From a virus (lineage: Duplodnaviria > Heunggongvirae > Uroviricota > Caudoviricetes): DNA of 37,298 nt. The stretch is from IMG/VR virus record IMGVR_UViG_2872158770_000003; one strand, given 5' to 3'. The notes below the pieces were generated by a model. The model saw nothing but the letters and a program-made list of their open reading frames with translations. It was not told the DNA's origin and did not search any database. The translations under genes were made by a program, and so were the position numbers. Position 1 is the first letter of the stretch. The number at the start of each line of letters is the position of its first letter. Positions 1,738 through 37,298 of the stretch are shown here, one piece after another.

Positions 1738-1801
1738 TGAGGTAGCCTGAGTTTAACGGACACTCCTTCCTGAAATAGAATGGCATCAGAAGGAGCTAAT
1801 A

Positions 1802-2104
1802 ATGAGCAGAAAAACCCAACGTTACTCTAAAGAGTTCAAAGCCGAAGCTGTCAGAACGGTTCCTGAAAATCAACTTTCGATCAGTGAAGGCGCTTCCCGA
1901 TTATCTCTTCCTGAAGGCACTTTAGGACAATGGGTTACCGCCGCCAGAAAAGGGCTCGGTACTCCTGGTTCCCGCACGGTGGCTGAACTGGAATCTGAAA
2001 TTCTGCAACTGCGTAAGGCGTTAAATGAAGCTCGCCTTGAGCGAGATATATTAAAAAAAGCAACAGCGTATTTTGCACAGGAGTCGCTGAAAAATACGCG
2101 TTAA
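1802..2104 (+). CDS. IS600 OrfA (HTH transposase N-terminal protein, 100 aa)
   Basis: Translation MSRKTQRYSKEFKAEAVRTV...LQLRKALNEARLERDILKKATAYF is typical IS3-family OrfA with leucine zipper. Confidence 0.9.
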   Translation: MSRKTQRYSKEFKAEAVRTVPENQLSISEGASRLSLPEGTLGQWVTAARKGLGTPGSRTVAELESEILQLRKALNEARLERDILKKATAYFAQESLKNTR

Positions 2105-2139
2105 TCGAACAATGGCGACAACAATTTCCCATTGAAGCG

Positions 2140-2958
2140 ATGTGTCAGGTATTTGGTGTATCCAGGAGCGGTTATTACAACTGGGTACAGCATGAACCCT
2201 CAGACAGAAAACAAAGTGATGAGCGGCTAAAACTGGAGATTAAGGTGGCACATATCCGCACTCGCGAAACATATGGAACCCGGCGGCTCCAGACGGAGCT
2301 GGCAGAGAATGGCATCATCGTTGGTCGTGACCGACTGGCACGTCTTCGTAAGGAGCTAAGGCTACACTGTAAGCAGAAACGCAAGTTCAGAGCGACTACG
2401 AACTCGAACCACAATCTGCCAGTTGCGCCAAATCTGCTGAACCAGACGTTCGCTCCTACAGCACCAAATCAGGTCTGGGTGGCGGACCTGACGTATGTTG
2501 CCACACAGGAGGGATGGTTGTACCTCGCTGGCATCAAAGATGTTTATACGTGCGAAATTGTCGGCTACGCCATGGGAGAGCGCATGACAAAAGAGCTGAC
2601 AGGTAAAGCCCTGTTTATGGCGCTCAGGAGCCAGCGCCCACCTGCCGGGCTAATCCACCACTCTGATCGAGGTTCACAGTACTGCGCATACGATTACCGG
2701 GTCATACAGGAGCAGTCTGGTCTGAAAACATCAATGTCGCGTAAAGGTAACTGTTACGACAACGCTCCGATGGAAAGCTTCTGGGGAACGCTGAAAAATG
2801 AGAGCCTGAGCCACTATCGTTTTAATAACCGGGATGAAGCCATCTCAGTAATACGGGAATACATTGAGATTTTCTACAATCGTCAGCGTCGTCACTCTCG
2901 TCTGGGGAATATCTCCCCGGCAGCCTTCAGGGAAAAATATCATCAGATGGCTGCTTAA
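2140..2958 (+). CDS. IS600 OrfB (DDE transposase catalytic domain, 272 aa)
   Basis: Translation contains IS3-family integrase-core motifs (WVADLTYV..., HSDRGSQY..., NAPMESFWGTLK); normally expressed as OrfAB fusion. Confidence 0.9.
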   Translation: MCQVFGVSRSGYYNWVQHEPSDRKQSDERLKLEIKVAHIRTRETYGTRRLQTELAENGIIVGRDRLARLRKELRLHCKQKRKFRATTNSNHNLPVAPNLLNQTFAPTAPNQVWVADLTYVATQEGWLYLAGIKDVYTCEIVGYAMGERMTKELTGKALFMALRSQRPPAGLIHHSDRGSQYCAYDYRVIQEQSGLKTSMSRKGNCYDNAPMESFWGTLKNESLSHYRFNNRDEAISVIREYIEIFYNRQRRHSRLGNISPAAFREKYHQMAA

Positions 2959-3001
2959 AAAAAGAACAAATGGTAGTGTCCGCTATTGCCAGTACACCTC
3001 A

Positions 3002-3719: not shown

Positions 3720-3799
3720 CCTGGCCTGAAGCATTAACAACGGTAGGAATTGCGATGGCGGTGGCGCTGGTGGTGTATTCGATTTGCCGCTGGGGATAA
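3716..3799 (+). CDS. possible small hydrophobic peptide (27 aa)
   Basis: ATG overlaps stop of preceding ORF (ATGA); translation [27 protein letters not shown] is membrane-like; too short for the ORF track. Confidence 0.25.
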
Positions 3800-8922: not shown

Positions 8923-8998
8923 GGCCCTTTAGCTCAGTGGTGAGAGCGAGCGACTCATAATCGCCAGGTCGCTGGTTCAAATCCAGCAAGGGCCACCA
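8923..8998 (+). tRNA. ileZ: tRNA-Ile2 (anticodon CAT, lysidine-type)
   Basis: Cloverleaf folded by hand: acceptor GGCCCTT/AAGGGCC, anticodon loop CTCATAA, T-loop TTCAAAT, encoded CCA; close to E. coli tRNA-Ile2 (recalled). Confidence 0.85.
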
Positions 8999-9005
8999 TC
9001 ACATA

Positions 9006-9082
9006 CCGCCATTAGCTCATCAGGAAAGAGCGCCAGCCTTCGAAGCTGGCTGCGCGGGGTTCAAGTCCCCGATGGCGGTCCA
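9006..9082 (+). tRNA. tRNA-Arg (anticodon TCG)
   Basis: Acceptor CCGCCAT/ATGGCGG, anticodon stem CCAGC/GCTGG with loop CTTCGAA, T-arm CGGGG-TTCAAGT-CCCCG, encoded CCA. Confidence 0.85.
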
Positions 9083-9095
9083 TTATCTGCATCAT

Positions 9096-9172
9096 GCGTT
9101 GTTAGCTCAGCCGGACAGAGCAATTGCCTTCTAAGCAATCGGTCACTGGTTCGAATCCAGTACAACGCGCCA
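9096..9172 (+). tRNA. tRNA-Arg (anticodon TCT, reads AGA/AGG)
   Basis: Acceptor GCGTTGT/ACAACGC, anticodon stem ATTGC/GCAAT with loop CTTCTAA, T-arm CACTGG-TTCGAAT-CCAGT, encoded CCA. Confidence 0.85.
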
Positions 9173-10147: not shown

Positions 10148-12001
10148 ATGGCATTTAAACACTATGACGTGGTCAGGGCGGCATCGCCGTCAGACCTTGC
10201 GAAACGACTGACACAAAAACTGAAGGAGGGCTGGCAGCCGTTTGGTAGTCCGGTGGCCATAACCCCTTATACCCTGATGCAGGCGATTGCAGCAGAAGGT
10301 GATGTGGTCGTCAGTGGTGCAACTGAGCCGGAGTGGTACTACGTCATCGTACTGGCCGGGCAATCCAATGCCATGGCTTACGGTGAAGGTCTTCCGCTTC
10401 CGGATTCATACGATGCGCCCCATCCGCGCATTAAGCAACTGGCCCGTCGTAACACAGTGACTCCCGGTGGTGAAGTATGCGTATTTAACGACATCATTCC
10501 TGCTGACCATTGTCTGCATGATGTTCAGGATATGAGTACGATTAACCATCCCCGGGCTGACCTGAGCAAAGGGCAGTACGGCTGTGTCGGACAGGGCTTA
10601 CATATTGCCAAAAAACTGCTTCCGTATATCCCTAATAATGCGGGGATCCTGCTGGTACCATGCTGTTGTGGTGGTTCGGCATTCACCCAGGGCACGGAGG
10701 GGACATTCAGCGAGTCCACGGGGGCCAGTCAGGATTCGGCTCGCTGGGGAGTGGGTAAGCCGTTATATCAGGATCTGCTTTTCCGCACGAAGGCAGCATT
10801 GCAGAAAAACCCGAAAAACGTTTTGCTGGCGATATGCTGGATGCAGGGGGAATTCGATATGACGAATGCCAGTTACGCCCAGCAGCCAGCAGCATTTCTT
10901 GCAATGGTACAGCAGTTCCGTGCTGACCTTGCCGGGCTGGCGGCGCAGTGTCACGGTGGAAGTCCGGCATCAGTCCCCTGGATTTGTGGCGACACGACAT
11001 ACGCGTGGAAACAAGAACACGGTACGCAATATGAAGTGGTATATGGTGCATATAAAGGTAAAGAATCCCAGCAGATTTATTTTGTTCCCTTTATGACCGA
11101 TGGTAGCGGAGTTAATACACCGACAAACAACCCGTCAGAAGATCCTGATATTGCCGGGTCTGGTTATTACGGTTCGGCATCCCGAACGAACAAAAACTGG
11201 GTATCATCAAATCGCCCGACGCATTTCAGCTCATGGGCGCGTCGTGGCATTATTCCCGATCGTATGGCAACTGCTATTCTGAACGTAGCCGGTCGCACCT
11301 TAGCCTTCATTAGTGGTAAGGCACCGGAAATCAAACCCTCGCCCGGCGGCGACACGCCATCGGGGCCGTCTGAAGATGCATCCATACGCACAATCTCCCT
11401 GTTGCCGACAGCCGGAGACGCTGCTGCGCAGGGCTGGAGCATTAAGAATGGCGGAGTTCAGTTGTCAGATGGTGTATTTAAGATCACCAAGCAGAGCAAT
11501 AAAGCCTGGTCCCTGACGCGCCCGGTGGATGACGCAGTCTCCCTGCTGACACGGGGTGGCAGACTGAGCTGTAAGTTTCGACTGTCAGGCGCACTGACCA
11601 ACAACCAGTTCGGTCTGGGAATTTATCTGTATACCGATGTAGCGTTACCTGACGTCGTGGCGATGACCGGGACTGGTAACCCGTTCCTGATGTCGTTCTT
11701 CACCCAGACCACAGACGGCAAACTGAATCTGATGCATCACAAGAAAGCAGGAAACACAAAGTTGGGCGAGTTCGGGAATTACAGTAACGACTGGCTGACG
11801 CTGGAGCTGGTGTTCACCGCCGGCAGTGCCACGGTTACTCCGAAACTGAATGGAGTGGCTGGCCCGGCATTCCAGGTCATAAAAGACAGTCTGACACTGG
11901 GGCTGAATGCGCTGACGCTGACGGATATTACCAAAAATGCAGCGTATGGCGTTGAGATAGAAAGTCTGGTGCTGGAGATAAATGCACCGGCATCATCATA
12001 A
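10148..12001 (+). CDS. nanS-p: prophage NanS-p-type sialate O-acetylesterase (617 aa)
   Basis: RBS GGGAGGA upstream; SGNH-hydrolase-like block VIVLAGQSNAMAYGEG; size and position (after phage tRNAs, before the holin) match Stx-phage nanS-p (recalled). Confidence 0.7.
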   Translation: MAFKHYDVVRAASPSDLAKRLTQKLKEGWQPFGSPVAITPYTLMQAIAAEGDVVVSGATEPEWYYVIVLAGQSNAMAYGEGLPLPDSYDAPHPRIKQLARRNTVTPGGEVCVFNDIIPADHCLHDVQDMSTINHPRADLSKGQYGCVGQGLHIAKKLLPYIPNNAGILLVPCCCGGSAFTQGTEGTFSESTGASQDSARWGVGKPLYQDLLFRTKAALQKNPKNVLLAICWMQGEFDMTNASYAQQPAAFLAMVQQFRADLAGLAAQCHGGSPASVPWICGDTTYAWKQEHGTQYEVVYGAYKGKESQQIYFVPFMTDGSGVNTPTNNPSEDPDIAGSGYYGSASRTNKNWVSSNRPTHFSSWARRGIIPDRMATAILNVAGRTLAFISGKAPEIKPSPGGDTPSGPSEDASIRTISLLPTAGDAAAQGWSIKNGGVQLSDGVFKITKQSNKAWSLTRPVDDAVSLLTRGGRLSCKFRLSGALTNNQFGLGIYLYTDVALPDVVAMTGTGNPFLMSFFTQTTDGKLNLMHHKKAGNTKLGEFGNYSNDWLTLELVFTAGSATVTPKLNGVAGPAFQVIKDSLTLGLNALTLTDITKNAAYGVEIESLVLEINAPASS

Positions 12002-12151: not shown

Positions 12152-12367
12152 ATGTACCAGATGGAAAAAATCACAACAGGTGTGTCATACACCACGTCAG
12201 CGGTGGGAACGGGCTACTGGTTCCTGCAGTTGCTGGACAGGGTTTCCCCGTCTCAGTGGGCGGCAATAGGCGTGCTGGGGAGTCTGCTGTTTGGGCTGCT
12301 GACATATCTGACTAACCTGTATTTCAAAATCAGAGAGGACCGTCGTAAGGCTGCACGGGGAGAGTAA
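12152..12367 (+). CDS. S: class II holin (phage-21 S-type pinholin), dual-start motif MYQMEK
   Basis: Translation ...[51 protein letters not shown] matches phage 21 pinholin (recalled); two in-frame ATGs at 12152 and 12161. Confidence 0.75.
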
Positions 12368-12371
12368 TTCA

Positions 12372-12686
12372 ATGACTCAAAACTATGAACTGATTGTGAA
12401 AGGGATCCGCAATTTTGAGAATAAAGTTACGGTAACTTTAGCGTTACGGGACAAAAAACGCTTTGACGGTGAAATTTTTGACCTGGACATCTCGCTGGAC
12501 CGTGTTGAAGGTGCCGCGCTGGAGTTTTATGAGGCAGCAGCCAGAAGGAGCATCAGACAGGTCTTCTTGGATGTTGCTGCCGGGTTATGTGAAGGGGACG
12601 AGCTGTTGCCAGAAACGCGCCCCTGTTCAGAGGCGCGGTATACCATAAAAATTAACAGTTCTGATAACTCGATTACGGGTTGTTAG
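12372..12686 (+). CDS. hypothetical protein (104 aa) between holin and endolysin
   Basis: ORF with GGGGAGAG RBS region 5 nt after holin stop; no family recognised. Confidence 0.4.
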   Translation: MTQNYELIVKGIRNFENKVTVTLALRDKKRFDGEIFDLDISLDRVEGAALEFYEAAARRSIRQVFLDVAAGLCEGDELLPETRPCSEARYTIKINSSDNSITGC

Positions 12687-12741
12687 CTTTTTGCAGTTGG
12701 CTTTCCAGTATCTTTCATTGGTAGCATCCTGATAAATATCC

Positions 12742-12794
12742 ATGAGCGCAAAAATCAAATACGGCCTGTCAGCTGCTGTTCTGGCGCTGATTGC
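12742..12794 (+). pseudogene. R: SAR-endolysin (R) 5' fragment, truncated after about 17 codons
   Basis: N-terminus MSAKIKYGLSAAVLALIA matches the signal-anchor-release start of Stx-phage/phage-21 endolysins (recalled); frame then runs into unrelated repeat DNA. Confidence 0.55.
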
Positions 12795-12912
12795 AAAATG
12801 GCATCTGAATCGATCGCAGTTTGGCATTCGAATCGATCATGATTTGGCATCCATCTCCGATCACAGTTTGGCATCACAATCGATCACGATTTGGCATACT
12901 TCCGATCATTGA
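12795..12912. repeat. five tandem direct repeats of about 23 bp (consensus TTTGGCATCnnAATCGATCAnGA)
   Basis: Units AAATGGCATCTGAATCGATCGCAG / TTTGGCATTCGAATCGATCATGA / TTTGGCATCCATCTCCGATCACAG / TTTGGCATCACAATCGATCACGA / TTTGGCATACTTCCGATCATTGA. Confidence 0.7.
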
Positions 12913-13119
12913 TTGGAATTCGCCAGTCACTCCGGGAATTAACTCTTTTCACCACAGTCTCCATTGCCGTGTTTAAACCAGTGGAGACGTCAATGTCCAA
13001 AAAGAGAAAATCCAGGAGCACTATGGAAACTTGTTTTAAGATCCTTCAGCTCAAGTTCGATAAGAAGCTGACTAACTGAGGTGTACTGGCAATAGCGGAC
13101 ACTACCATTTGTTCTTTTT

Positions 13120-13938
13120 TTAAGCAGCCATCTGATGATATTTTTCCCTGAAGGCTGCCGGGGAGATATTCCCCAGACGAGAGTGACGACGCTGACGATT
13201 GTAGAAAATCTCAATGTATTCCCGTATTACTGAGATGGCTTCATCCCGGTTATTAAAACGATAGTGGCTCAGGCTCTCATTTTTCAGCGTTCCCCAGAAG
13301 CTTTCCATCGGAGCGTTGTCGTAACAGTTACCTTTACGCGACATTGATGTTTTCAGACCAGACTGCTCCTGTATGACCCGGTAATCGTATGCGCAGTACT
13401 GTGAACCTCGATCAGAGTGGTGGATTAGCCCGGCAGGTGGGCGCTGGCTCCTGAGCGCCATAAACAGGGCTTTACCTGTCAGCTCTTTTGTCATGCGCTC
13501 TCCCATGGCGTAGCCGACAATTTCGCACGTATAAACATCTTTGATGCCAGCGAGGTACAACCATCCCTCCTGTGTGGCAACATACGTCAGGTCCGCCACC
13601 CAGACCTGATTTGGTGCTGTAGGAGCGAACGTCTGGTTCAGCAGATTTGGCGCAACTGGCAGATTGTGGTTCGAGTTCGTAGTCGCTCTGAACTTGCGTT
13701 TCTGCTTACAGCGTAGCCTTAGCTCCTTACGAAGACGTGCCAGTCGGTCACGACCAACGATGATGCCATTCTCTGCCAGCTCCGTCTGGAGCCGCCGGGT
13801 TCCATATGTTTCGCGAGTGCGGATATGTGCCACCTTAATCTCCAGTTTTAGCCGCTCATCACTTTGTTTTCTGTCTGAGGGTTCATGCTGTACCCAGTTG
13901 TAATAACCGCTCCTGGATACACCAAATACCTGACACAT
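13120..13938 (-). CDS. IS600 OrfB (272 aa)
   Basis: Same protein as 2140-2958 apart from one substitution (R/H). Confidence 0.9.
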   Translation of the reverse strand: MCQVFGVSRSGYYNWVQHEPSDRKQSDERLKLEIKVAHIRTRETYGTRRLQTELAENGIIVGRDRLARLRKELRLRCKQKRKFRATTNSNHNLPVAPNLLNQTFAPTAPNQVWVADLTYVATQEGWLYLAGIKDVYTCEIVGYAMGERMTKELTGKALFMALRSQRPPAGLIHHSDRGSQYCAYDYRVIQEQSGLKTSMSRKGNCYDNAPMESFWGTLKNESLSHYRFNNRDEAISVIREYIEIFYNRQRRHSRLGNISPAAFREKYHQMAA

Positions 13939-13973
13939 CGCTTCAATGGGAAATTGTTGTCGCCATTGTTCGA

Positions 13974-14276
13974 TTAACGCGTATTTTTCAGCGACTCCTG
14001 TGCAAAATACGCTGTTGCTTTTTTTAATATATCTCGCTCAAGGCGAGCTTCATTTAACGCCTTACGCAGTTGCAGAATTTCAGATTCCAGTTCAGCCACC
14101 GTGCGGGAACCAGGAGTACCGAGCCCTTTTCTGGCGGCGGTAACCCATTGTCCTAAAGTGCCTTCAGGAAGAGATAATCGGGAAGCGCCTTCACTGATCG
14201 AAAGTTGATTTTCAGGAACCGTTCTGACAGCTTCGGCTTTGAACTCTTTAGAGTAACGTTGGGTTTTTCTGCTCAT
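13974..14276 (-). CDS. IS600 OrfA (100 aa)
   Basis: Identical to 1802-2104 product. Confidence 0.9.
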   Translation of the reverse strand: MSRKTQRYSKEFKAEAVRTVPENQLSISEGASRLSLPEGTLGQWVTAARKGLGTPGSRTVAELESEILQLRKALNEARLERDILKKATAYFAQESLKNTR

Positions 14277-14332
14277 TATTAGCTCCTTCTGATGCCATTC
14301 TATTTCAGGAAGGAGTGTCCGTTAAACTCAGG

Positions 14333-14890
14333 CTACCTCAGCCGGAAGAACAGACTGGCTTCCTCTCTGTTCATCGGCAGATAGCCTATTTCATCCAGGA
14401 TCAACACCCGGGCATAACTCAGTTGCTGTAGCTGACGCTCCAGCCGGTTTTCCTGTTTCGCTTTCATCAGTGTCGCGATCAGTCTGTCCAGTGGCATAAA
14501 CAGTACCCGATGTCCCGCATCCACCGCTTTCACGCCAAGAGCTATGGCCAGATGAGTTTTTCCGACACCAGGAGGGCCCAGCAGGATCACGTTTTCGCTG
14601 CGCTCCACGAACGCCAGACCAGCCAGTTCCCGGACAACCTTACGGTCGATGCCCGGCTGGAAGGTAAAGTCGAACTGCTCCAGCGTTTTGACCCACGGCA
14701 GACGAGCCTGCTTCAGCCTGGACTCCATACCGCGCTGATGCCTGCCGTTCCATTCCTGCTGTAGCGCCATGCACAGGAACTCCCGGTAGTTCAGCTCTTT
14801 TTTAGCTGCCTGTTCCAGCAGGCTTTCAACGTGATAACTCAGATGCTCCATTTTCAGGCGACTCAGCAGGACTTCCAGTTCATGCATCAC
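14333..14890 (-). pseudogene. istB: IS21-family helper ATPase IstB, C-terminally truncated by IS600 (185 aa remain)
   Basis: Walker A LLGPPGVGKTHLA and Walker B VLILDEIGY present; frame runs into the IS600 terminus where a stop is supplied by IS600 sequence. Confidence 0.75.
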
Positions 14891-16160
14891 AACAGCTCCT
14901 CATAGGCACTCAGTGGTCGATGTTCCACCTGACTGACCTGCTGCCAGAGCGGGGCGTGATGCTCCGGCACTGTCTGCCAGCCAGACGATGCTGAACAGAG
15001 GCGATGTGAGGCCACCAGTTTCTCATTACTGTAGATCCGCAACTCGTCATCCAGCGATATTCGTATCGATACCGGCTGACCACACAGCGCTTCGGGAACG
15101 CTGTAACGATTACCACCAACCTCGATATAGCTGTCCCAGGACACATGGCGGATATCGAAGTAACTGGTATCGAAGTCTGTATCCGGTAACGGCTGCAGAT
15201 GTTCCTGCTCCAGCGCGAAGCGCTGTTCCGGCGTTTCTTTGAACTGGCGAAGCTCCCGTTTGTCAGCCACATCGGCTATCCATTGCTCCAGTTGTTGATT
15301 GACATGAGTGAAGCTGTCGAACCTGCGGTACCGGACGAAGAAGTTCTCCTTGAGGTATTTCACCATCCGCTCAACCTTACCTTTTGTTCTGGCCCTGCGT
15401 GGACGGCATGCCCGTGGCAGGAAGTTATAGTGGTCAGCCAGCAACAGGAATCCGGAGTTGAACACGACTTTCCCGTTGTTATTCTTCAGCACCGCAGCCT
15501 TCTGGTTATCAACCAGCACCGTTTTCACACAACCACCGAAGTAGCGGAAGGCGCGAACCAGTGATTCGTAGGTATGCTCAGCATCCTGTTTTGGTGCGGC
15601 GAAGACATGGAAGCTGCGGGAGAACCCCAGCGTATTAACCGCAAAGTTAACTTTGCACCGTTGCCCGGCAACCTCCACCTCAACTTCGCCCCAGTCATGC
15701 TGGAGCTGGTATCCAGGCTGAGTTTCGAAGCGAACTGTTCTTTTTGACGGACGCATTTTACGTTTGGGCTGGATGTAGTAACGCAGCATGGAACGTCCGC
15801 CCGTATAACCCATTGCCTTAATCTCCGCGAAGATAACCTCGCTATTCCAGACATTCTCTGCCAGGCGCATGTCGATGTAATCCATAAACGGTTTCAGCTT
15901 AACCATTTTGTGGCGGGTCTTTCTGGCTGGCGGTTCAGGGTATTTGAGGTAGCGTCTGACCGTCCGTTCAGAGCAACCAATCTGAGTCGCAATATCGACG
16001 ATGTACGCGCCCTGCTGGCGCATTTGCTTTATCATGTAAAAGTCCTCTCTGCTCAGCATGTTGATGTCCTTTCTGGTGTGAGAACCTTAAGGAAACAACA
16101 TGTTGGGTGGAGCGGACAATCCAAATGGCGAATTACCGTCTTATATCACTGGCGCTGACA
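14341..16160 (-). mobile_element. IS21-family element, partial: one terminus at 16160, other end removed by IS600
   Basis: istA then istB on minus strand; high-coordinate terminus reads ...CTGACA, placed where homology to FII begins at 16161; istB cut at the IS600 boundary. Confidence 0.6.
14887..16059 (-). CDS. istA: IS21-family transposase IstA (390 aa)
   Basis: N-terminal HTH and DDE integrase-core-like region; 4-nt overlap with istB as in IS21-family operons. Confidence 0.8.
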   Translation of the reverse strand: MLSREDFYMIKQMRQQGAYIVDIATQIGCSERTVRRYLKYPEPPARKTRHKMVKLKPFMDYIDMRLAENVWNSEVIFAEIKAMGYTGGRSMLRYYIQPKRKMRPSKRTVRFETQPGYQLQHDWGEVEVEVAGQRCKVNFAVNTLGFSRSFHVFAAPKQDAEHTYESLVRAFRYFGGCVKTVLVDNQKAAVLKNNNGKVVFNSGFLLLADHYNFLPRACRPRRARTKGKVERMVKYLKENFFVRYRRFDSFTHVNQQLEQWIADVADKRELRQFKETPEQRFALEQEHLQPLPDTDFDTSYFDIRHVSWDSYIEVGGNRYSVPEALCGQPVSIRISLDDELRIYSNEKLVASHRLCSASSGWQTVPEHHAPLWQQVSQVEHRPLSAYEELL

Positions 16161-16235
16161 TCTCCGGATGACGGGGGCAGCTGTTATCTCTGGCTCAACC
16201 GTGGGCAACCACCCGCAGTTAACCGGCGACGATAA
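16161..16235 (+). pseudogene. FII: 3' remnant of head-tail joining gene FII
   Basis: Frame translates ...SPDDGGSCYLWLNRGQPPAVNRRR*, matching the lambda gpFII C-terminus (recalled); upstream part replaced by the IS21-family element. Confidence 0.55.
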
Positions 16236-16249
16236 ACGCAGGGTGAATT

Positions 16250-16825
16250 ATGGCGATAAAAGGGCTTGATCAGGCGATTGACAATCTGAACCGGGTTCGT
16301 AAAAACGCCATTCCGGCTGCTTCTGCAATGACCATTAACCGCGTGGCCACAACGGCGATTAATCAGTCTTCGTCACAGGTTGCCCGGGAAACCAGGGTGA
16401 GACGGAAACTGGTAAAGGAACGGTCCAGACTGAAACGGGCGACGGTCAGAAATCCGAATGCCAGAATTATCGTTAACCGCGGTGATCTCCCTGTGATTAA
16501 GCTGGGGATCAGAATGCTGGGGCGTCGTCCGAACAGCATACTCAAAGCCGGTCAGCATCGTTATCAGCGGGCATTTATCCAGCGATTAAATAATGGGCGC
16601 TGGCATGTTATGCAACGTCTTCCCCAGGCCAGATATGAGGAGGGCAATGACGACAAGGGAAGGAAAAAGCGTAATCGCCTTCCCATTCAGGTGGTGAAAA
16701 TCCCGATGGCGGCCCCACTGAAACAGGCATTTGATGAGAATGTTGACCGTATCCGGCGTGAACGCCTGCCTAAAGAACTGGCATACGCGCTGAAACAACA
16801 ACTGAGGATTGCGATAAAACGATGA
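16250..16825 (+). CDS. Z: tail completion protein Z (191 aa)
   Basis: Lambda gpZ-like sequence and length; stop overlaps U start. Confidence 0.85.
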   Translation: MAIKGLDQAIDNLNRVRKNAIPAASAMTINRVATTAINQSSSQVARETRVRRKLVKERSRLKRATVRNPNARIIVNRGDLPVIKLGIRMLGRRPNSILKAGQHRYQRAFIQRLNNGRWHVMQRLPQARYEEGNDDKGRKKRNRLPIQVVKIPMAAPLKQAFDENVDRIRRERLPKELAYALKQQLRIAIKR

Positions 16826-24115: not shown

Positions 24116-27100
24116 ATGGGAAAAGGTGGCGGTAAGGCACACACGCCTCGTGAGGCGAAGGATAATCTCAAATCCACGCAGATGATGAGCGTGATTGATG
24201 CGATTGGTGAGGGACTGATAGAAGGTCCGGTGAAGGGACTGCAGAGTATCCTGGTGAACAAAACCCCGCTGACGGACACGGACGGTAATCCCGTGATACA
24301 CGGTGTGACGGCGGTCTGACGCGCCGGGGAGCAGGAGCAGACACCACCGGAAGGCTTTGAGTCCTCCGGTGCTGAAACCGGACTGGGCGTGGAAGTGACG
24401 AAGGCAAAACCGGTGACGCGCACCATTACGTCCGCGAACATTGACCGCCTGCGGGTTACCTTCGGGGTGCAGTCACTGGTGCAGACCACGTCAAAGGGTG
24501 ACCGAAACCCGACATCCGTCCGCCTGCTGATTCAGTTACAGCGTAACGGTAACTGGGTGACAGAAAAGGATGTCACCATTAACGGCAAGACCACCTCGCA
24601 GTTTCTGGCGTCGGTGATTCTGGATAATCTGCCTCCCCGTCCTTTTAACATCCGGATGGTCCGGGAGACAGCGGACAGCACCACGGACCAGCTGCAGAAT
24701 AAGACGCTGTGGTCGTCATACACCGAAATCATCGATGTGAAACAGTGCTACCCGAACACGGCCATTGTGGGGCTGCAGGTGGATGCGGAGCAGTTCGGCG
24801 GCCAGCAGATGACGGTGAACTACCATATCCGCGGTCGCATCATCCAGGTGCCGTCAAACTATGACCCGGAAAAACGCACGTACAGTGGTATCTGGGACGG
24901 TAGCCTGAAACCGGCATACAGCAACAATCCGGCCTGGTGTCTGTGGGACATGCTGACTCACCCGCGCTACGGCATGGGAAAACGTCTGGGGGCGGCGGAT
25001 GTGGACAAGTGGGCGCTGTATGCCATCGGGCAGTACTGCGACCAGACGGTCCCGGATAGTTTCGGGGAGACCGAGCCGCGGATGACCTTCAATGCGTACC
25101 TGGCACAACAGCGTAAGGCATGGGACGTGCTCAGTGATTTCTGCTCGGCGATGCGCTGTATGCCGGTATGGAACGGCCAGACGCTGACGTTTGTTCAGGA
25201 CCGCCCGTCGGATGTGGTGTGGCCGTACACCAACAGCGATGTGGTGGTGGATGATAACGGCGTGGGTTTCCGCTACAGCTTCAGTGCCCTGAAGGACCGG
25301 CACACGGCGGTGGAGGTGAATTATACCGACCCGCAGAACGGCTGGCAGACCTCCACGGAACTGGTGGAAGACCCGGAAGCCATACTGCGCTACGGACGCA
25401 ACCTGCTGAAGATGGACGCGTTCGGCTGTACCAGCCGCGGTCAGGCCCACCGTGCCGGACTGTGGGTGATAAAGACCGAACTGCTGGAAACGCAGACGGT
25501 GGATTTCACGCTCGGGTCTCAGGGGCTGCGGCACACACCCGGTGACATCATTGAAATCTGTGATAACGACTATGCCGGGACCCTGACCGGCGGACGTGTC
25601 CTGTCCATTGATGCTGCCACCCGCACTCTGACGCTGGACCGTGAAGTGACACTTCCGGAGACCGGTGCCGCCACGGTGAACCTGATTAACGGCAGCGGTA
25701 AGCCGGTGAGTGTGGACATCACCGAACACCCCGCGCCGGACCGGATACAGGTCAGTACCCTGCCTGATGGTGTGGGGACTCTCCCTGCCGTCACTGCGCC
25801 GTCTCCTGTTCCGCTGTGTCTCCGTCCGGGAAAACACGGACGGCACCTTTGCCATCACGGCGGTGCAGCACGTACTGGAAAAAGAAGCCATCGTGGATAA
25901 CGGTGCCCGCTTTGAGCCGCAGTCAGGTTCCCTGAACAGCGTCATCCCACCGGCAGTGCAGCACCTGACGGCCAGTATCTGGCGCAGGCGAAATGGGACA
26001 CGCCGCGGGTGGTGAAGGGTGTGCGCTTCAGTCTGCGCCTGACCAGTGGTAAGGGAACGGATGCCAGACTGGTGACCACCGCCATCACCGCAGACACGGA
26101 GCACCGTTTCAGCGGCCTGCCGCTCGGGGAATACACCCTGACGGTGCGGGCGATAAACAGCTATGGCCAGCAGGGTGAACCTGCCACCACCACCTTCCGG
26201 ATTGCCGCACCGGCAGCACCGTCGCGGATTGAGCTGACGCCGGGCTATTTTCAGATAACCGCAACGCCGCATCTTGCCGTTTATGACCCGACGGTACAGT
26301 TTGAGTTCTGGTTCTCGGAAAAGCGGATTGCGGATATCAGGCAGGTTGAAACCAGCGCCCGCTATCTTGGCACGGCGCTGTACTGGATAGCCGCCAGTAT
26401 CAATATCAAACCGGGCCATGATTATTATTTTTACGTTCGCAGTGTGAACACCGTTGGCAAATCGGCATTCGTGGAGGCTGTCGGTCGGGCGAGCGATGAT
26501 GCGGAAGGTTACTTGGATTTTTTCAAAGGAGAGATAGGGAAAACACATCTGGCTCAGGAGCTGTGGACGCAGATTGATAACGGTCAGCTTGCGCCTGACC
26601 TGGCTGAAATCAGGACGTCCATTACGGATGTCAGCAATGAAATCACGCAGACTGTCAATAAGAAACTGAAAGACCAGAGTGCGGCAATCCAGCAGATACA
26701 GAAGGTTCAGGTTGATACAAATAATAATCTGAACAGCATGTGGGCTGTGAAGCTGCAACAGATGAAGGACGGACGCCTTTATATTGCGGGTATCGGTGCC
26801 GGTATTGAGAATACGCCAGCAGGAATGCAGAGTCAGGTGCTGCTGGCGGCAGACAGGATTGCGATGATTAATCCTGCGAATGGCAACACAAAGCCGATGT
26901 TTGTTGGTCAGGGCGATCAGATATTCATGAACGACGTGTTCCTGAAACGCCTGACGGCTCCCACCATTACCAGCGGCGGTAATCCTCCGGCATTTTCCCT
27001 GACACCGGACGGAAAACTGACCGCTAAAAATGCAGATATCAGTGGCAGTGTGAATGCGAACGCCGGGACGCTCAACAATGTCACAATTAATGAGAACTGT

Positions 27101-27550
27101 CAGATTAAGGGGAAACTGTCAGCCAACCAGATTGAAGGCGATATAGTCAAAACAGTGGGTAAGGCTTTTCCGCGGGACTCCCGGGCACCGGAGCGGTGGC
27201 CATCAGGGACCATTACCGTCAGGATTTATGACGATCAGCCTTTTGACAGGCAAATTGTTATTCCGGCGGTGGCATTCAGCGGCGCTAAACATGAGCGGGA
27301 GAATAACGATATTTATTCGTCATGCCGCCTGATAGTACGGAAAAACGGTGCTGAAATTTATAACCGTACCGCGCTGGATAATACGCTGATTTACAGTGGT
27401 GTTATTGATATGCCAGCTGGTCGCGGCCACATGACGCTGGAGTTTTCGGTGTCAGCATGGCTGGTGAATAACTGGTATCCCACAGCAAGTATCAGCGATT
27501 TGCTGGTTGTGGTGATGAAGAAAGCCACCGCAGGCATCAGTATCAGCTGA
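24116..27550 (+). pseudogene. J: central tail fiber / host specificity protein J, inactivated by one in-frame stop and two frameshifts
   Basis: Lambda J-like sequence over the full length, but in-frame TGA at 24317-24319 and frame changes near 25775 and 25975 break it into three ORFs (67, 503 and 513 aa). Confidence 0.85.
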
Positions 27551-32239: not shown

Positions 32240-33126
32240 TTAAACACTCCCCACGTTGTACCATATTCCCCCAATCAATTTCTGAATTGGCCTTCTGGCA
32301 ACAGTGTCGACAATATCATCCGCATTGCTGTTAATTGCGGCTGTTAAAACATAACCTGACGCATCGCCAAAGCCGTAGTCGCGCCATACGTTTTTATATT
32401 CAATGCTGCCAAGACGAATATCCCGAACGACATGATTATGCAGCCATGTGCTTAACCAGTTGTTTTCCCACACTGAACCATAAATATCGCCACTAGACGC
32501 AACTTGCGCACCACTTCCCAGCGCAAATCCCCCATCTGTTTTAAAAATGAAATCACCACCACCATCTGAACCGTTATTAATATGAACACCATCACCACCG
32601 TTATCTTTCCACAAAAACATACGAATTCTTCCGTCTTCGTTGGCGAATGTAATGTGGTGGCGGTAATTACTTTTTAATCTAAAATTGCTGCCATTAGATT
32701 CAATATCTTTATAAAGATGTAATCCTAACTCATCAATATGTCCGATGCGCGAACCATTTGAATAGAAGCTAATAATACCATCTCCATCTTGCCTAAATCC
32801 GGTGTCGTTATCTCCCAGAACAATGGAGTTTTCACCCAGTGCGTTATCAGTAGCTCCAATAGCTAGACCTCCTTTAATTTTGGCCCCGTGGCTGACAGAT
32901 ATAGCACCTGTTCTCAGATTTATAGCGAATGGCCTTAATGGGCCGATATTACCGTTTTCGCCTTGTCCTTCAGCCGTCGGAATGAAATGAAGAAAATCTT
33001 CTGAACGACGGAAAATTAGACCGAAGGTATCATTGAAAATTCGCAGCGCATTCACCGTGCCAATTTTCAGTTCTCCGGTCATTTTATCGCCGGAACGCTG
33101 AACGGCGTTACCAGCCTTGTTTACCG
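32240..33126 (-). CDS. alternative side-tail-fiber C-terminal cassette (Stf'), no own start; would fuse to stf constant part after inversion
   Basis: Minus-strand frame open from the crossover site; ends ...[17 protein letters not shown], homologous to the plus-strand stf end; recombining the half-sites gives an in-frame junction. Confidence 0.6.
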
Positions 33127-34583: not shown

Positions 34584-34657
34584 TCATTGGGATTATGCCG
34601 CAGGTGATGCTGCCAACTTACTGATTTAGTGTATGATGGTGTTTTTGAGGTGCTCCA

Positions 34658-34933
34658 GTGGCTTCTGTTTCTATCAGCTGTCCCTCCTGTTCAGCTACTG
34701 ACGGGGTGGTGCGTAACGGCAAAAGCACTGCCGGACATCAGCGCTATCTCTGCTCTCACTGCCGTAAAACATGGCAACTGCAGTTCACTTACACCGCTTC
34801 TCAACCCGGTACGCACCAGAAAATCATTGATATGGCCATGAATGGCGTTGGATGCCGGGCAACTGCACGCATTATGGGCGTTGGCCTCAACACGATTTTA
34901 CGTCACTTAAAAAACTCAGGCCGCAGTCGGTAA
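34658..34933 (+). CDS. insA: IS1 InsA
   Basis: Same protein as 945-1220 with one substitution (G/S at residue 21). Confidence 0.9.
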
Positions 34934-35355
34934 CCTCGCGCATACAGCCGGGCAGTGACGTCATCGTCTGCGCGGAAATGGACGAACAGTGGGGCTATGT
35001 CGGGGCTAAATCGCGCCAGCGCTGGCTGTTTTACGCGTATGACAGTCTCCGGAAGACGGTTGTTGCGCACGTATTCGGTGAACGCACTATGGCGACGCTG
35101 GGGCGTCTTATGAGCCTGCTGTCACCCTTTGACGTGGTGATATGGATGACGGATGGCTGGCCGCTGTATGAATCCCGCCTGAAGGGAAAGCTGCACGTAA
35201 TCAGCAAGCGATATACGCAGCGAATTGAGCGGCATAACCTGAATCTGAGGCAGCACCTGGCACGGCTGGGACGGAAGTCGCTGTCGTTCTCAAAATCGGT
35301 GGAGCTGCATGACAAAGTCATCGGGCATTATCTGAACATAAAACACTATCAATAA
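34852..35355 (+). CDS. insB: IS1 InsB reading frame
   Basis: Identical to 523-1026 product. Confidence 0.9.
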
Positions 35356-35399
35356 GTTGGAGTCATTACCTATGCCGCAGACACGTCGTATGCAGGAAC

Positions 35400-36344: not shown

Positions 36345-36904
36345 TTAATTGGATGATCACCACCTCTGACGCCAATCAGGGAGGTGGTGAGACGTACAGG
36401 GTTGGCGTAACCGGTCATCACAAAACCCGGCGCGGATTTCTCCGCCCCTGCACGCCCCACCATAATGCGAATGTGGCAATGCTTAACGCAAAAAAAACCG
36501 CAAACGCGGCTATGCGTTGTGATGTTATCCGAGACGCCAATCCCGACAACCGATTTTGCGGTTGTGTGAGGAATATAGCCCCGGAGAACAAAAACTGTCA
36601 ACGGGCAAAAAAATTTCCGTTATCAGGAATGTATAAAATTAAAGCGATCGAGCAAAAAATCCTTTCTGCAAAACTAAAAAAGATTTCAATAAAATCAGGC
36701 AGTTAAAAACACGGAAAAACGGTATAAAAAAGCGCCTCAAAATCCTGTTTTTTCTTTCAGATACAATGTCTTATTGCATTTTTTAAAACATGTCAGTGTG
36801 GTACATGGATATCGATACCATCGCCAATTATAAACTGGGCGGTGCACAGCAACATGATAGCGTACGCCTCGATCCGTGGGTGTTTATGTTCTCAGCAGGA
36901 TATC

Positions 36905-37298
36905 GGGTAATGACTCCAACTTATTGATAGTGTTTTATGTTCAGATAATGCCCGATGACTTTGTCATGCAGCTCCACCGATTTTGAGAACGACAGCGACT
37001 TCCGTCCCAGCCGTGCCAGGTGCTGCCTCAGATTCAGGTTATGCCGCTCAATTCGCTGCGTATATCGCTTGCTGATTACGTGCAGCTTTCCCTTCAGGCG
37101 GGATTCATACAGCGGCCAGCCATCCGTCATCCATATCACCACGTCAAAGGGTGACAGCAGGCTCATAAGACGCCCCAGCGTCGCCATAGTGCGTTCACCG
37201 AATACGTGCGCAACAACCGTCTTCCGGAGACTGTCATACGCGTAAAACAGCCAGCGCTGGCGCGATTTAGCCCCGACATAGCCCCACTGTTCGTCCAT
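36905..37298 (-). mobile_element. IS1, third copy, partial (runs off window end)
   Basis: Terminal repeat GGTAATGACTCCAACTTATTGATAGTG at 36905; sequence identical to the insB end of the other copies. Confidence 0.9.
36921..37298 (-). CDS. insB: IS1 InsB, partial at window edge
   Basis: Translation identical to the C-terminal 125 aa of InsB. Confidence 0.85.

Follow-up and report, generated by a model that had tools for sequence, protein, structure and literature searches.

A 23-bp repeat array that interrupts a prophage endolysin gene in Shigella sonnei matches the left end of the insertion sequence ISSso4

What is an array of short direct repeats doing inside the lysis gene of a phage? In the DNA analysed here (37,298 nucleotides from a tailed virus, called the window below), an endolysin gene starts normally and, after a few codons, runs into tandem units of about 23 bp. 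The first-pass annotation, made from the letters alone, left the origin of this array unexplained. We find that 12792-13076 matches one end, the left, of a catalogued insertion sequence at 100% identity, and we are nearly certain, from this identity and from the organisation of intact copies, that the array belongs to ISSso4, a member of the IS21 family, as its left terminal inverted repeat region. This is a fragment of a known insertion sequence, a case of ordinary prophage decay in Shigella sonnei, and as such already known.

The lysis cassette that precedes the array contains the following features.

12152-12364: P21-type class II holin gene (PF04971)
12372-12686: YdfR/DUF1327 gene
12742-12794, plus strand: what is left of the 5' end of an endolysin gene from a lambdoid prophage (lysozyme family, PF00959), 17 of 177 codons plus 2 nt

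The ATG at 12742 opens MSAKIKYGLSAAVLALIA, and the reading frame matches intact 177-aa lysozyme genes through nucleotide 12794, in agreement with the earlier view that the start of the gene is intact and that it is cut after about 17 codons. The cassette as a whole (holin, YdfR, lysozyme) shares 99.8% identity with its counterpart in the prophages of E. coli 55989 and many others, and this homology ends at 12794. In a three-way alignment the endolysin matches through ...GCTGATTGC and ISSso4 from TGCAAAAT, which puts the junction at 12791/12792; since the TGC at 12792-12794 is common to the endolysin and to the tip of ISSso4, the breakpoint lies between 12791 and 12794, with an ambiguity of 3 nt. 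About 160 endolysin codons are missing, and with 17 codons only the window holds no lysozyme (SAR endolysin) domain; SAR behaviour of the remaining N-terminus would be expected.

One could argue that nothing is broken here, and that 12795-12912 is the normal coding sequence of an intact endolysin variant, because an open reading frame of 56 aa does span 12742 to 12912. We consider the chance that this reading is right to be vanishingly small: the intact homologue has 177 aa with PF00959 at residues 33-167, intact genes diverge completely from the window after 12794, and the 56-aa product matches no NCBIfam family. The frame is a fusion of an endolysin start with foreign DNA.

This foreign DNA begins with the array itself.

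12797-12912, plus strand: five direct repeats of about 23 bp each, core TTTGGCAT-N5-7-CGATCA, matching the multiple terminal repeats of the ISSso4 left end, presumed IstA-binding sites by analogy
12797-12819, plus strand: repeat unit 1, AATGGCATCTGAATCGATCGCAG
12820-12842, plus strand: repeat unit 2, TTTGGCATTCGAATCGATCATGA
12843-12866, plus strand: repeat unit 3, TTTGGCATCCATCTCCGATCACAG
12867-12889, plus strand: repeat unit 4, TTTGGCATCACAATCGATCACGA
12890-12912, plus strand: repeat unit 5, TTTGGCATACTTCCGATCATTGA
12913-12935, plus strand: decayed sixth repeat, TTGGAATTCGCCAGTCAC, recognised by its cleaner equivalents in relatives

Units of 22-24 bp follow one another head to tail from about 12797. 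Tandem Repeats Finder detects an array of period 23 at 12799-12897 (4.3 copies, score 98) and a double unit of period 47 at 12811-12922 (score 136). A separate repeat search finds five copies with spacings of 23, 24, 23 and 22 bp, in agreement with the original count of five tandem repeats of about 23 bp from about 12795. The consensus proposed at that time, allowed up to 3 mismatches, has three sites in the 37-kb window, all within the array and none outside it, and no match in 100 dinucleotide-preserving shuffles. Given its period, the spacing of its copies and the absence of matches in the shuffles, the array is real and not a product of chance. A looser core, GGCAT-N(4-8)-CGATC, recovers all five array copies in a scan of the window, together with one unrelated site at 11246. 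In Rfam, searched at E <= 1, nothing came up apart from a chance match to a snoRNA, whose 18 bits compare with a gathering score of 55, and a sigma-70 consensus scan of 12650-13120 detected no promoter-like site.

The identity of the array becomes apparent when it is considered together with the DNA that follows it.

12792-13076, plus strand: orphan left-end fragment of ISSso4 (IS21 family), the first 285 of 2638 bp, 100% identical to ISSso4 copies
12936-13022, plus strand: ISSso4 leader, from the repeats to istA, defined by identity to intact ISSso4; an alternative upstream ATG lies at 12993
13023-13076, plus strand: first 18 annotated codons of ISSso4 istA, METCFKILQLKFDKKLTN, cut by IS600 (window 13023 corresponds to the istA start at position 3732 of the plasmid pSS_046 locus, L001)

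Copies in E. coli, S. sonnei and E. albertii that carry the PGAP label "IS21-like element ISSso4 family transposase" match all 285 bp at 100% identity, and it is from this annotation of identical copies that we take the name. By the ISfinder convention, nucleotide identity of at least 95% makes two copies the same IS, and here the identity is complete over the 285 bp. The BLASTN search suggested earlier for 12790-13076, run as megablast on complete E. coli genomes and PLSDB plasmids, returned hundreds of full-length matches to ISSso4 left ends, the best of them 100% identical from 12791 or 12792 through 13076 and lying under istA features of the ISSso4 family in E. coli, on virulence plasmids of S. 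sonnei and on plasmids of E. albertii. The fragment thus contains the terminal inverted repeat with its left tip (TGCAAAATGG, beginning TG at 12792), five good repeats and a decayed one, the leader and 18 istA codons. The first-pass annotation was right that 164 bp separate the array from IS600 (12913-13076, IS600 starting at 13077); these 164 bp can no longer be called unassigned, being the decayed sixth repeat, the ISSso4 leader and the start of istA.

When the whole of ISSso4 was compared with the window by BLAST, only its nucleotides 1-285 were found, at 12792-13076, and neither another piece nor the right end was detected. The window therefore holds a fragment of ISSso4 and not a functional member: there are 18 codons of istA and no istB, and, as both a transposase gene and a partner end are lacking in the window, this orphan end is immobile by itself.

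An intact ISSso4 of 2638 bp is present on plasmid pSS_046 of S. sonnei Ss046 (L001, 3501-6138), where the two genes typical of the family, istA for a DDE transposase and istB for an AAA+ helper, are consecutive.

L001 3732-5267: istA, IS21 family transposase (NF033546, 285.8 bits, cutoff 160)
L001 5284-6039: istB, IstB helper ATPase (NF038214, 250.2 bits, cutoff 200)

This copy starts with TGCAAAATGGCATC... (TG) and ends with ...GAATACGCA (CA), and is flanked by a direct target duplication of 7 bp, ctcaggc, where 4-8 bp are usual for the IS21 family. Read inward from the tip, its right end carries three inverted copies of the motif, TGCGTATTCCGCTCTATTCGATCACGG, ATTGGCATCGAAGTTCGATCAGCG and ATTCGCATCCATTCGATCAACCG, and a scan of the whole element finds the core motif confined to both ends. 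The element therefore has multiple direct repeats spaced by about 23 bp and inverted between its ends, the left set being the one seen in the window and the right set the one seen in the intact copy. With its 23-bp period, its TG and CA tips, its inverted ends and its istA-istB operon, ISSso4 fits the description of the IS21 family. We noticed that on pSS_046 the intact ISSso4 sits inside an IS600 (L001 3440-3500 and 6139-6340, with ctcaggc near the IS600 end), the reciprocal of the arrangement in the window, where IS600 sits inside ISSso4.

Two other origins had been suggested for such an array, the end of a Tn7-like transposon and replicon iterons, beside the end of an IS21-family element. 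It is true that tandem sites of 22-23 bp are known in the ends of Tn7 and Mu and in iteron origins, so that a different transposon, or a replicon or phage origin bound by a Rep-type initiator, was a sensible thing to consider; no result obtained here speaks for it, and we consider it extremely unlikely. Every full-length match listed, like both intact copies that we examined, has the array directly upstream of istA (or of istA then istB), and no rep gene is adjacent. There are 2,502 such places in E. coli genomes and 422 in plasmids, and the annotation beneath the listed full-length matches is istA of the IS21 family with its neighbours, never tnsABC or rep. In intact copies the repeats stand beside istA and istB and not beside tnsA/B/C, as TnsB-binding repeats would, and the intact element is a 2.6-kb istA-istB insertion sequence that carries the same motif, inverted, at its opposite end. 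What survives of the earlier proposal is the transposase-binding end of an IS21-family element: by analogy with IS21 and IS5376, the 23-bp units would be bound by the IstA of ISSso4. No data contradict the assignment to ISSso4.

Relatives of ISSso4 that are 76-98% identical, on Salmonella p770-MDR, Pectobacterium plasmid Drgb3 and E. coli p1RM8082, keep the GGCAT and CGATCA cores. Where the sixth repeat lies, the relatives from Salmonella and Pectobacterium read TTGGCATCCTGCCAGTCAC and TTTGGCATCCTGCCGATCAC, cleaner versions of it; in these plasmids (L011 3001-3286 and L013 3001-3286) the sixth 23-bp repeat is better preserved than 12913-12935 of ISSso4. This better-kept repeat points to an ancestral left end of the ISSso4 type with six sites, as opposed to three on the right.

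On its other side the fragment is cut by IS600, and IS600 is itself followed by a second, incomplete element before phage DNA resumes.

13077-14340, minus strand: complete IS600 (IS3 family), 1264 bp, with terminal inverted repeats and an IS3 transposase (NF033516)
14341-16160, minus strand: IS21 proper without its right end, 100% identical over 1820-1822 bp to copies named "IS21-like element IS21 family" (NF033546)
14341-14890, minus strand: truncated IS21 istB, cut at residue 185
14887-16059, minus strand: IS21 istA
16161-16235, plus strand: last 75 nt of a phage head-tail joining gene, where phage DNA resumes (alignment to the E. coli 55989 prophage, L002, from 25781 onward)
16250-16825: gpZ (PF06763, Minor_tail_Z)

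This arrangement invites the idea that IS600 split the neighbouring IS21 (14341-16160) in two, and that the repeats belong to its missing right end. The istB of this IS21 is indeed truncated exactly at IS600, and the right ends of IS21-family elements carry repeats too. We nevertheless consider it extremely unlikely. No minus-strand frame of 12913-13076 continues IstB; this region instead holds ISSso4 left-end sequence and then, on the plus strand, the first codons of istA. The intact left terminus of the IS21, TGTCAGCGCC..., which ends at 16160, reads TGTCAGCGCCAGTGATATAAG... and is unrelated to TGCAAAATGGCATCTGAATCG, and the IstA proteins of IS21 and ISSso4 are only 25% identical. Finally, the IS600 at 13077-14340, which is 100% identical to copies on S. 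sonnei pINV plasmids, has no 3-bp target duplication (its flanks are aac and gcc). It had been stated that neither IS600 nor the IS21 ending at 16160 explains the array, and this is borne out, the array belonging to a second and distantly related IS21-family element, ISSso4.

Compared with the prophage of E. coli 55989, the locus lacks 11,285 bp (L002 14496-25780, about 11.3 kb), which encode the remainder of the endolysin, a lysis protein, the terminase subunits, the portal, the protease, the decoration and major capsid proteins, and FI. Having lost the genes for endolysin, Rz, terminase, portal and capsid, the prophage can neither lyse its host nor package its DNA, and is dead. Separately, the gene for gpJ (tip attachment, 24389-27550) falls into two or more ORFs (24389-25900 and 26009-27550) that jointly hold the J domains; it is probably a pseudogene, which would be more evidence for a defective prophage. 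A tRNA cluster at 8923-9172 (Met-CAT, Arg-TCG, Arg-TCT), downstream of the prophage DNA methylase gene, occupies the same position as a cluster of three tRNAs in the E. coli 55989 prophage (annotated there as tRNA-Ile, Arg and Arg). The window also contains three copies of IS1 (508-1275, 34603-35370 and 36904-37298, the last cut by the end of the window), the first two mutually inverted.

A second IS600 lies at 1738-3001, about 10 kb away, inverted and 99.9% identical to the one at 13077-14340, and it too is without a 3-bp target duplication (flanks ttt and tcc). The lack of target duplications at both copies suggests that both are products of recombination between IS600 elements or of adjacent deletions. 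We considered a simple inversion between the two copies of the window and rejected it: the flanks of 1738-3001 contain no ISSso4 or IS21 sequence, and the missing halves of these elements are thus left unaccounted for.

We propose the following history, in which the order of events, including that of IS600 insertion and deletion, is our reading of the present junctions. In the S. sonnei lineage, ISSso4 would first have entered the endolysin gene of a lambdoid prophage, at codon 17/18. IS600 would then have inserted 285 bp into ISSso4, after istA codon 18. Finally, a deletion adjacent to IS600, or recombination between IS600 copies, would have taken away what remained of ISSso4 and of the endolysin gene, together with about 11 kb of genes for lysis, terminase and head, leaving IS600 joined to a truncated IS21 just upstream of gpZ. 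This last step is supported by the absence of a target duplication at IS600 and by the DNA beyond IS600, which varies between strains.

How widespread is this arrangement? The junction recurs in many sequenced S. sonnei chromosomes. An exact protein match places the 56-aa fusion ORF (12742-12909) in 196 blocks of the assembly collection, and at least 75 of these include contigs longer than 1 Mb. The locus in CP026802.1, the genome of S. sonnei ATCC 29930 (PMC9430107), matches the window over 12,171 bp at 100% identity. All eight S. sonnei loci examined share both the endolysin/ISSso4 and the ISSso4/IS600 junctions. Beyond IS600 they differ: two continue into IS21, as the window does, and in the six others (L003-L005, L007, L008 and L010) IS600 is joined to window position 32528, inverted and reading from 32528 to 30208, with IS21 and the tail genes Z to J absent. 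These six loci have the tail-fibre segment 30208-33133 in the opposite orientation, with a resolvase/invertase ORF nearby, and they are without the IS1 of 34603-35370; L008 has an extra IS600 in this region.

Among 5,426 complete E. coli genomes, not one carries the endolysin/ISSso4 junction; the best coverage of a query spanning it is 93% and ends at 12794. The 38-nt junction sequence has no exact match in a contig collection with one genome per species. In GTDB, Shigella is merged into E. coli. The junction appears specific to one lineage, and was found only among the S. sonnei assemblies checked.

We do not think that these results matter much beyond annotation: a puzzling repeat array is assigned to a catalogued insertion sequence, and its breakpoints are mapped exactly. 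The junction could serve as a marker of the S. sonnei lineage, and the DNA that varies beyond IS600 is an example of the structural variation, driven by insertion sequences, that is already on record for Shigella. One may speculate a little further, by analogy with the better studied members of the family, although we would put little weight on it. The orphan left end, with its five or six predicted IstA sites, might be bound in trans by IstA from intact copies (such as the one on pSS_046) and act as a decoy, or as a partner in a left-left synapsis, promoting rearrangements at the prophage; separately, the long left array (six sites, against three on the right) might offer a natural test case for the role of extra repeats in the IS21 family. 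We regard these ideas as long shots.

The closest known system is of course ISSso4 itself, found in S. sonnei but also in E. coli, E. albertii and Salmonella plasmids, with which the window shares 285 bp at 100% identity, from the TG tip to the start of istA. The difference is that the window retains 285 of 2638 bp, without a functional istA, istB or the right end, and is an immobile relic.

The terminal inverted repeats of IS21-family elements consist of several direct repeats (L1/L2 and R1/R2) spaced by 23 bp, and integration requires two complete repeats per end for IstA (PMC10122671). In the cryo-EM structure described in the same work, an IstA tetramer brings two ends into synapsis and the repeats are wrapped in the manner of a negative supercoil, and two left ends can be used by IstA in vitro (PMC10122671). 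IS21 and IS5376 resemble ISSso4 in having multiple direct terminal repeats spaced by about 23 bp, TG...CA tips and an istA-istB operon, whereas the sequence of the ISSso4 repeats is unrelated to theirs. Its IstA is also longer than that of IS21 (511 against 390 aa, at the 25% identity mentioned above), and its repeats number five or six on the left and three on the right, instead of the two per end drawn for prototypical IS21 members (PMC10122671).

At the level of the genome, the list of insertion sequences of S. sonnei 53G includes ISSso4, IS21 and IS600 (bioRxiv 10.1101/680777). The locus resembles the IS-driven decay of Shigella genomes discussed by Hawkey et al. (bioRxiv 10.1101/680777; PMC7373316), with IS600, IS21, ISSso4 and IS1 piled up at one locus, genes inactivated and structural variation around IS600. 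The endolysin locus is not singled out in the part of that work drawn on here, and we see it as one more case of the known process.
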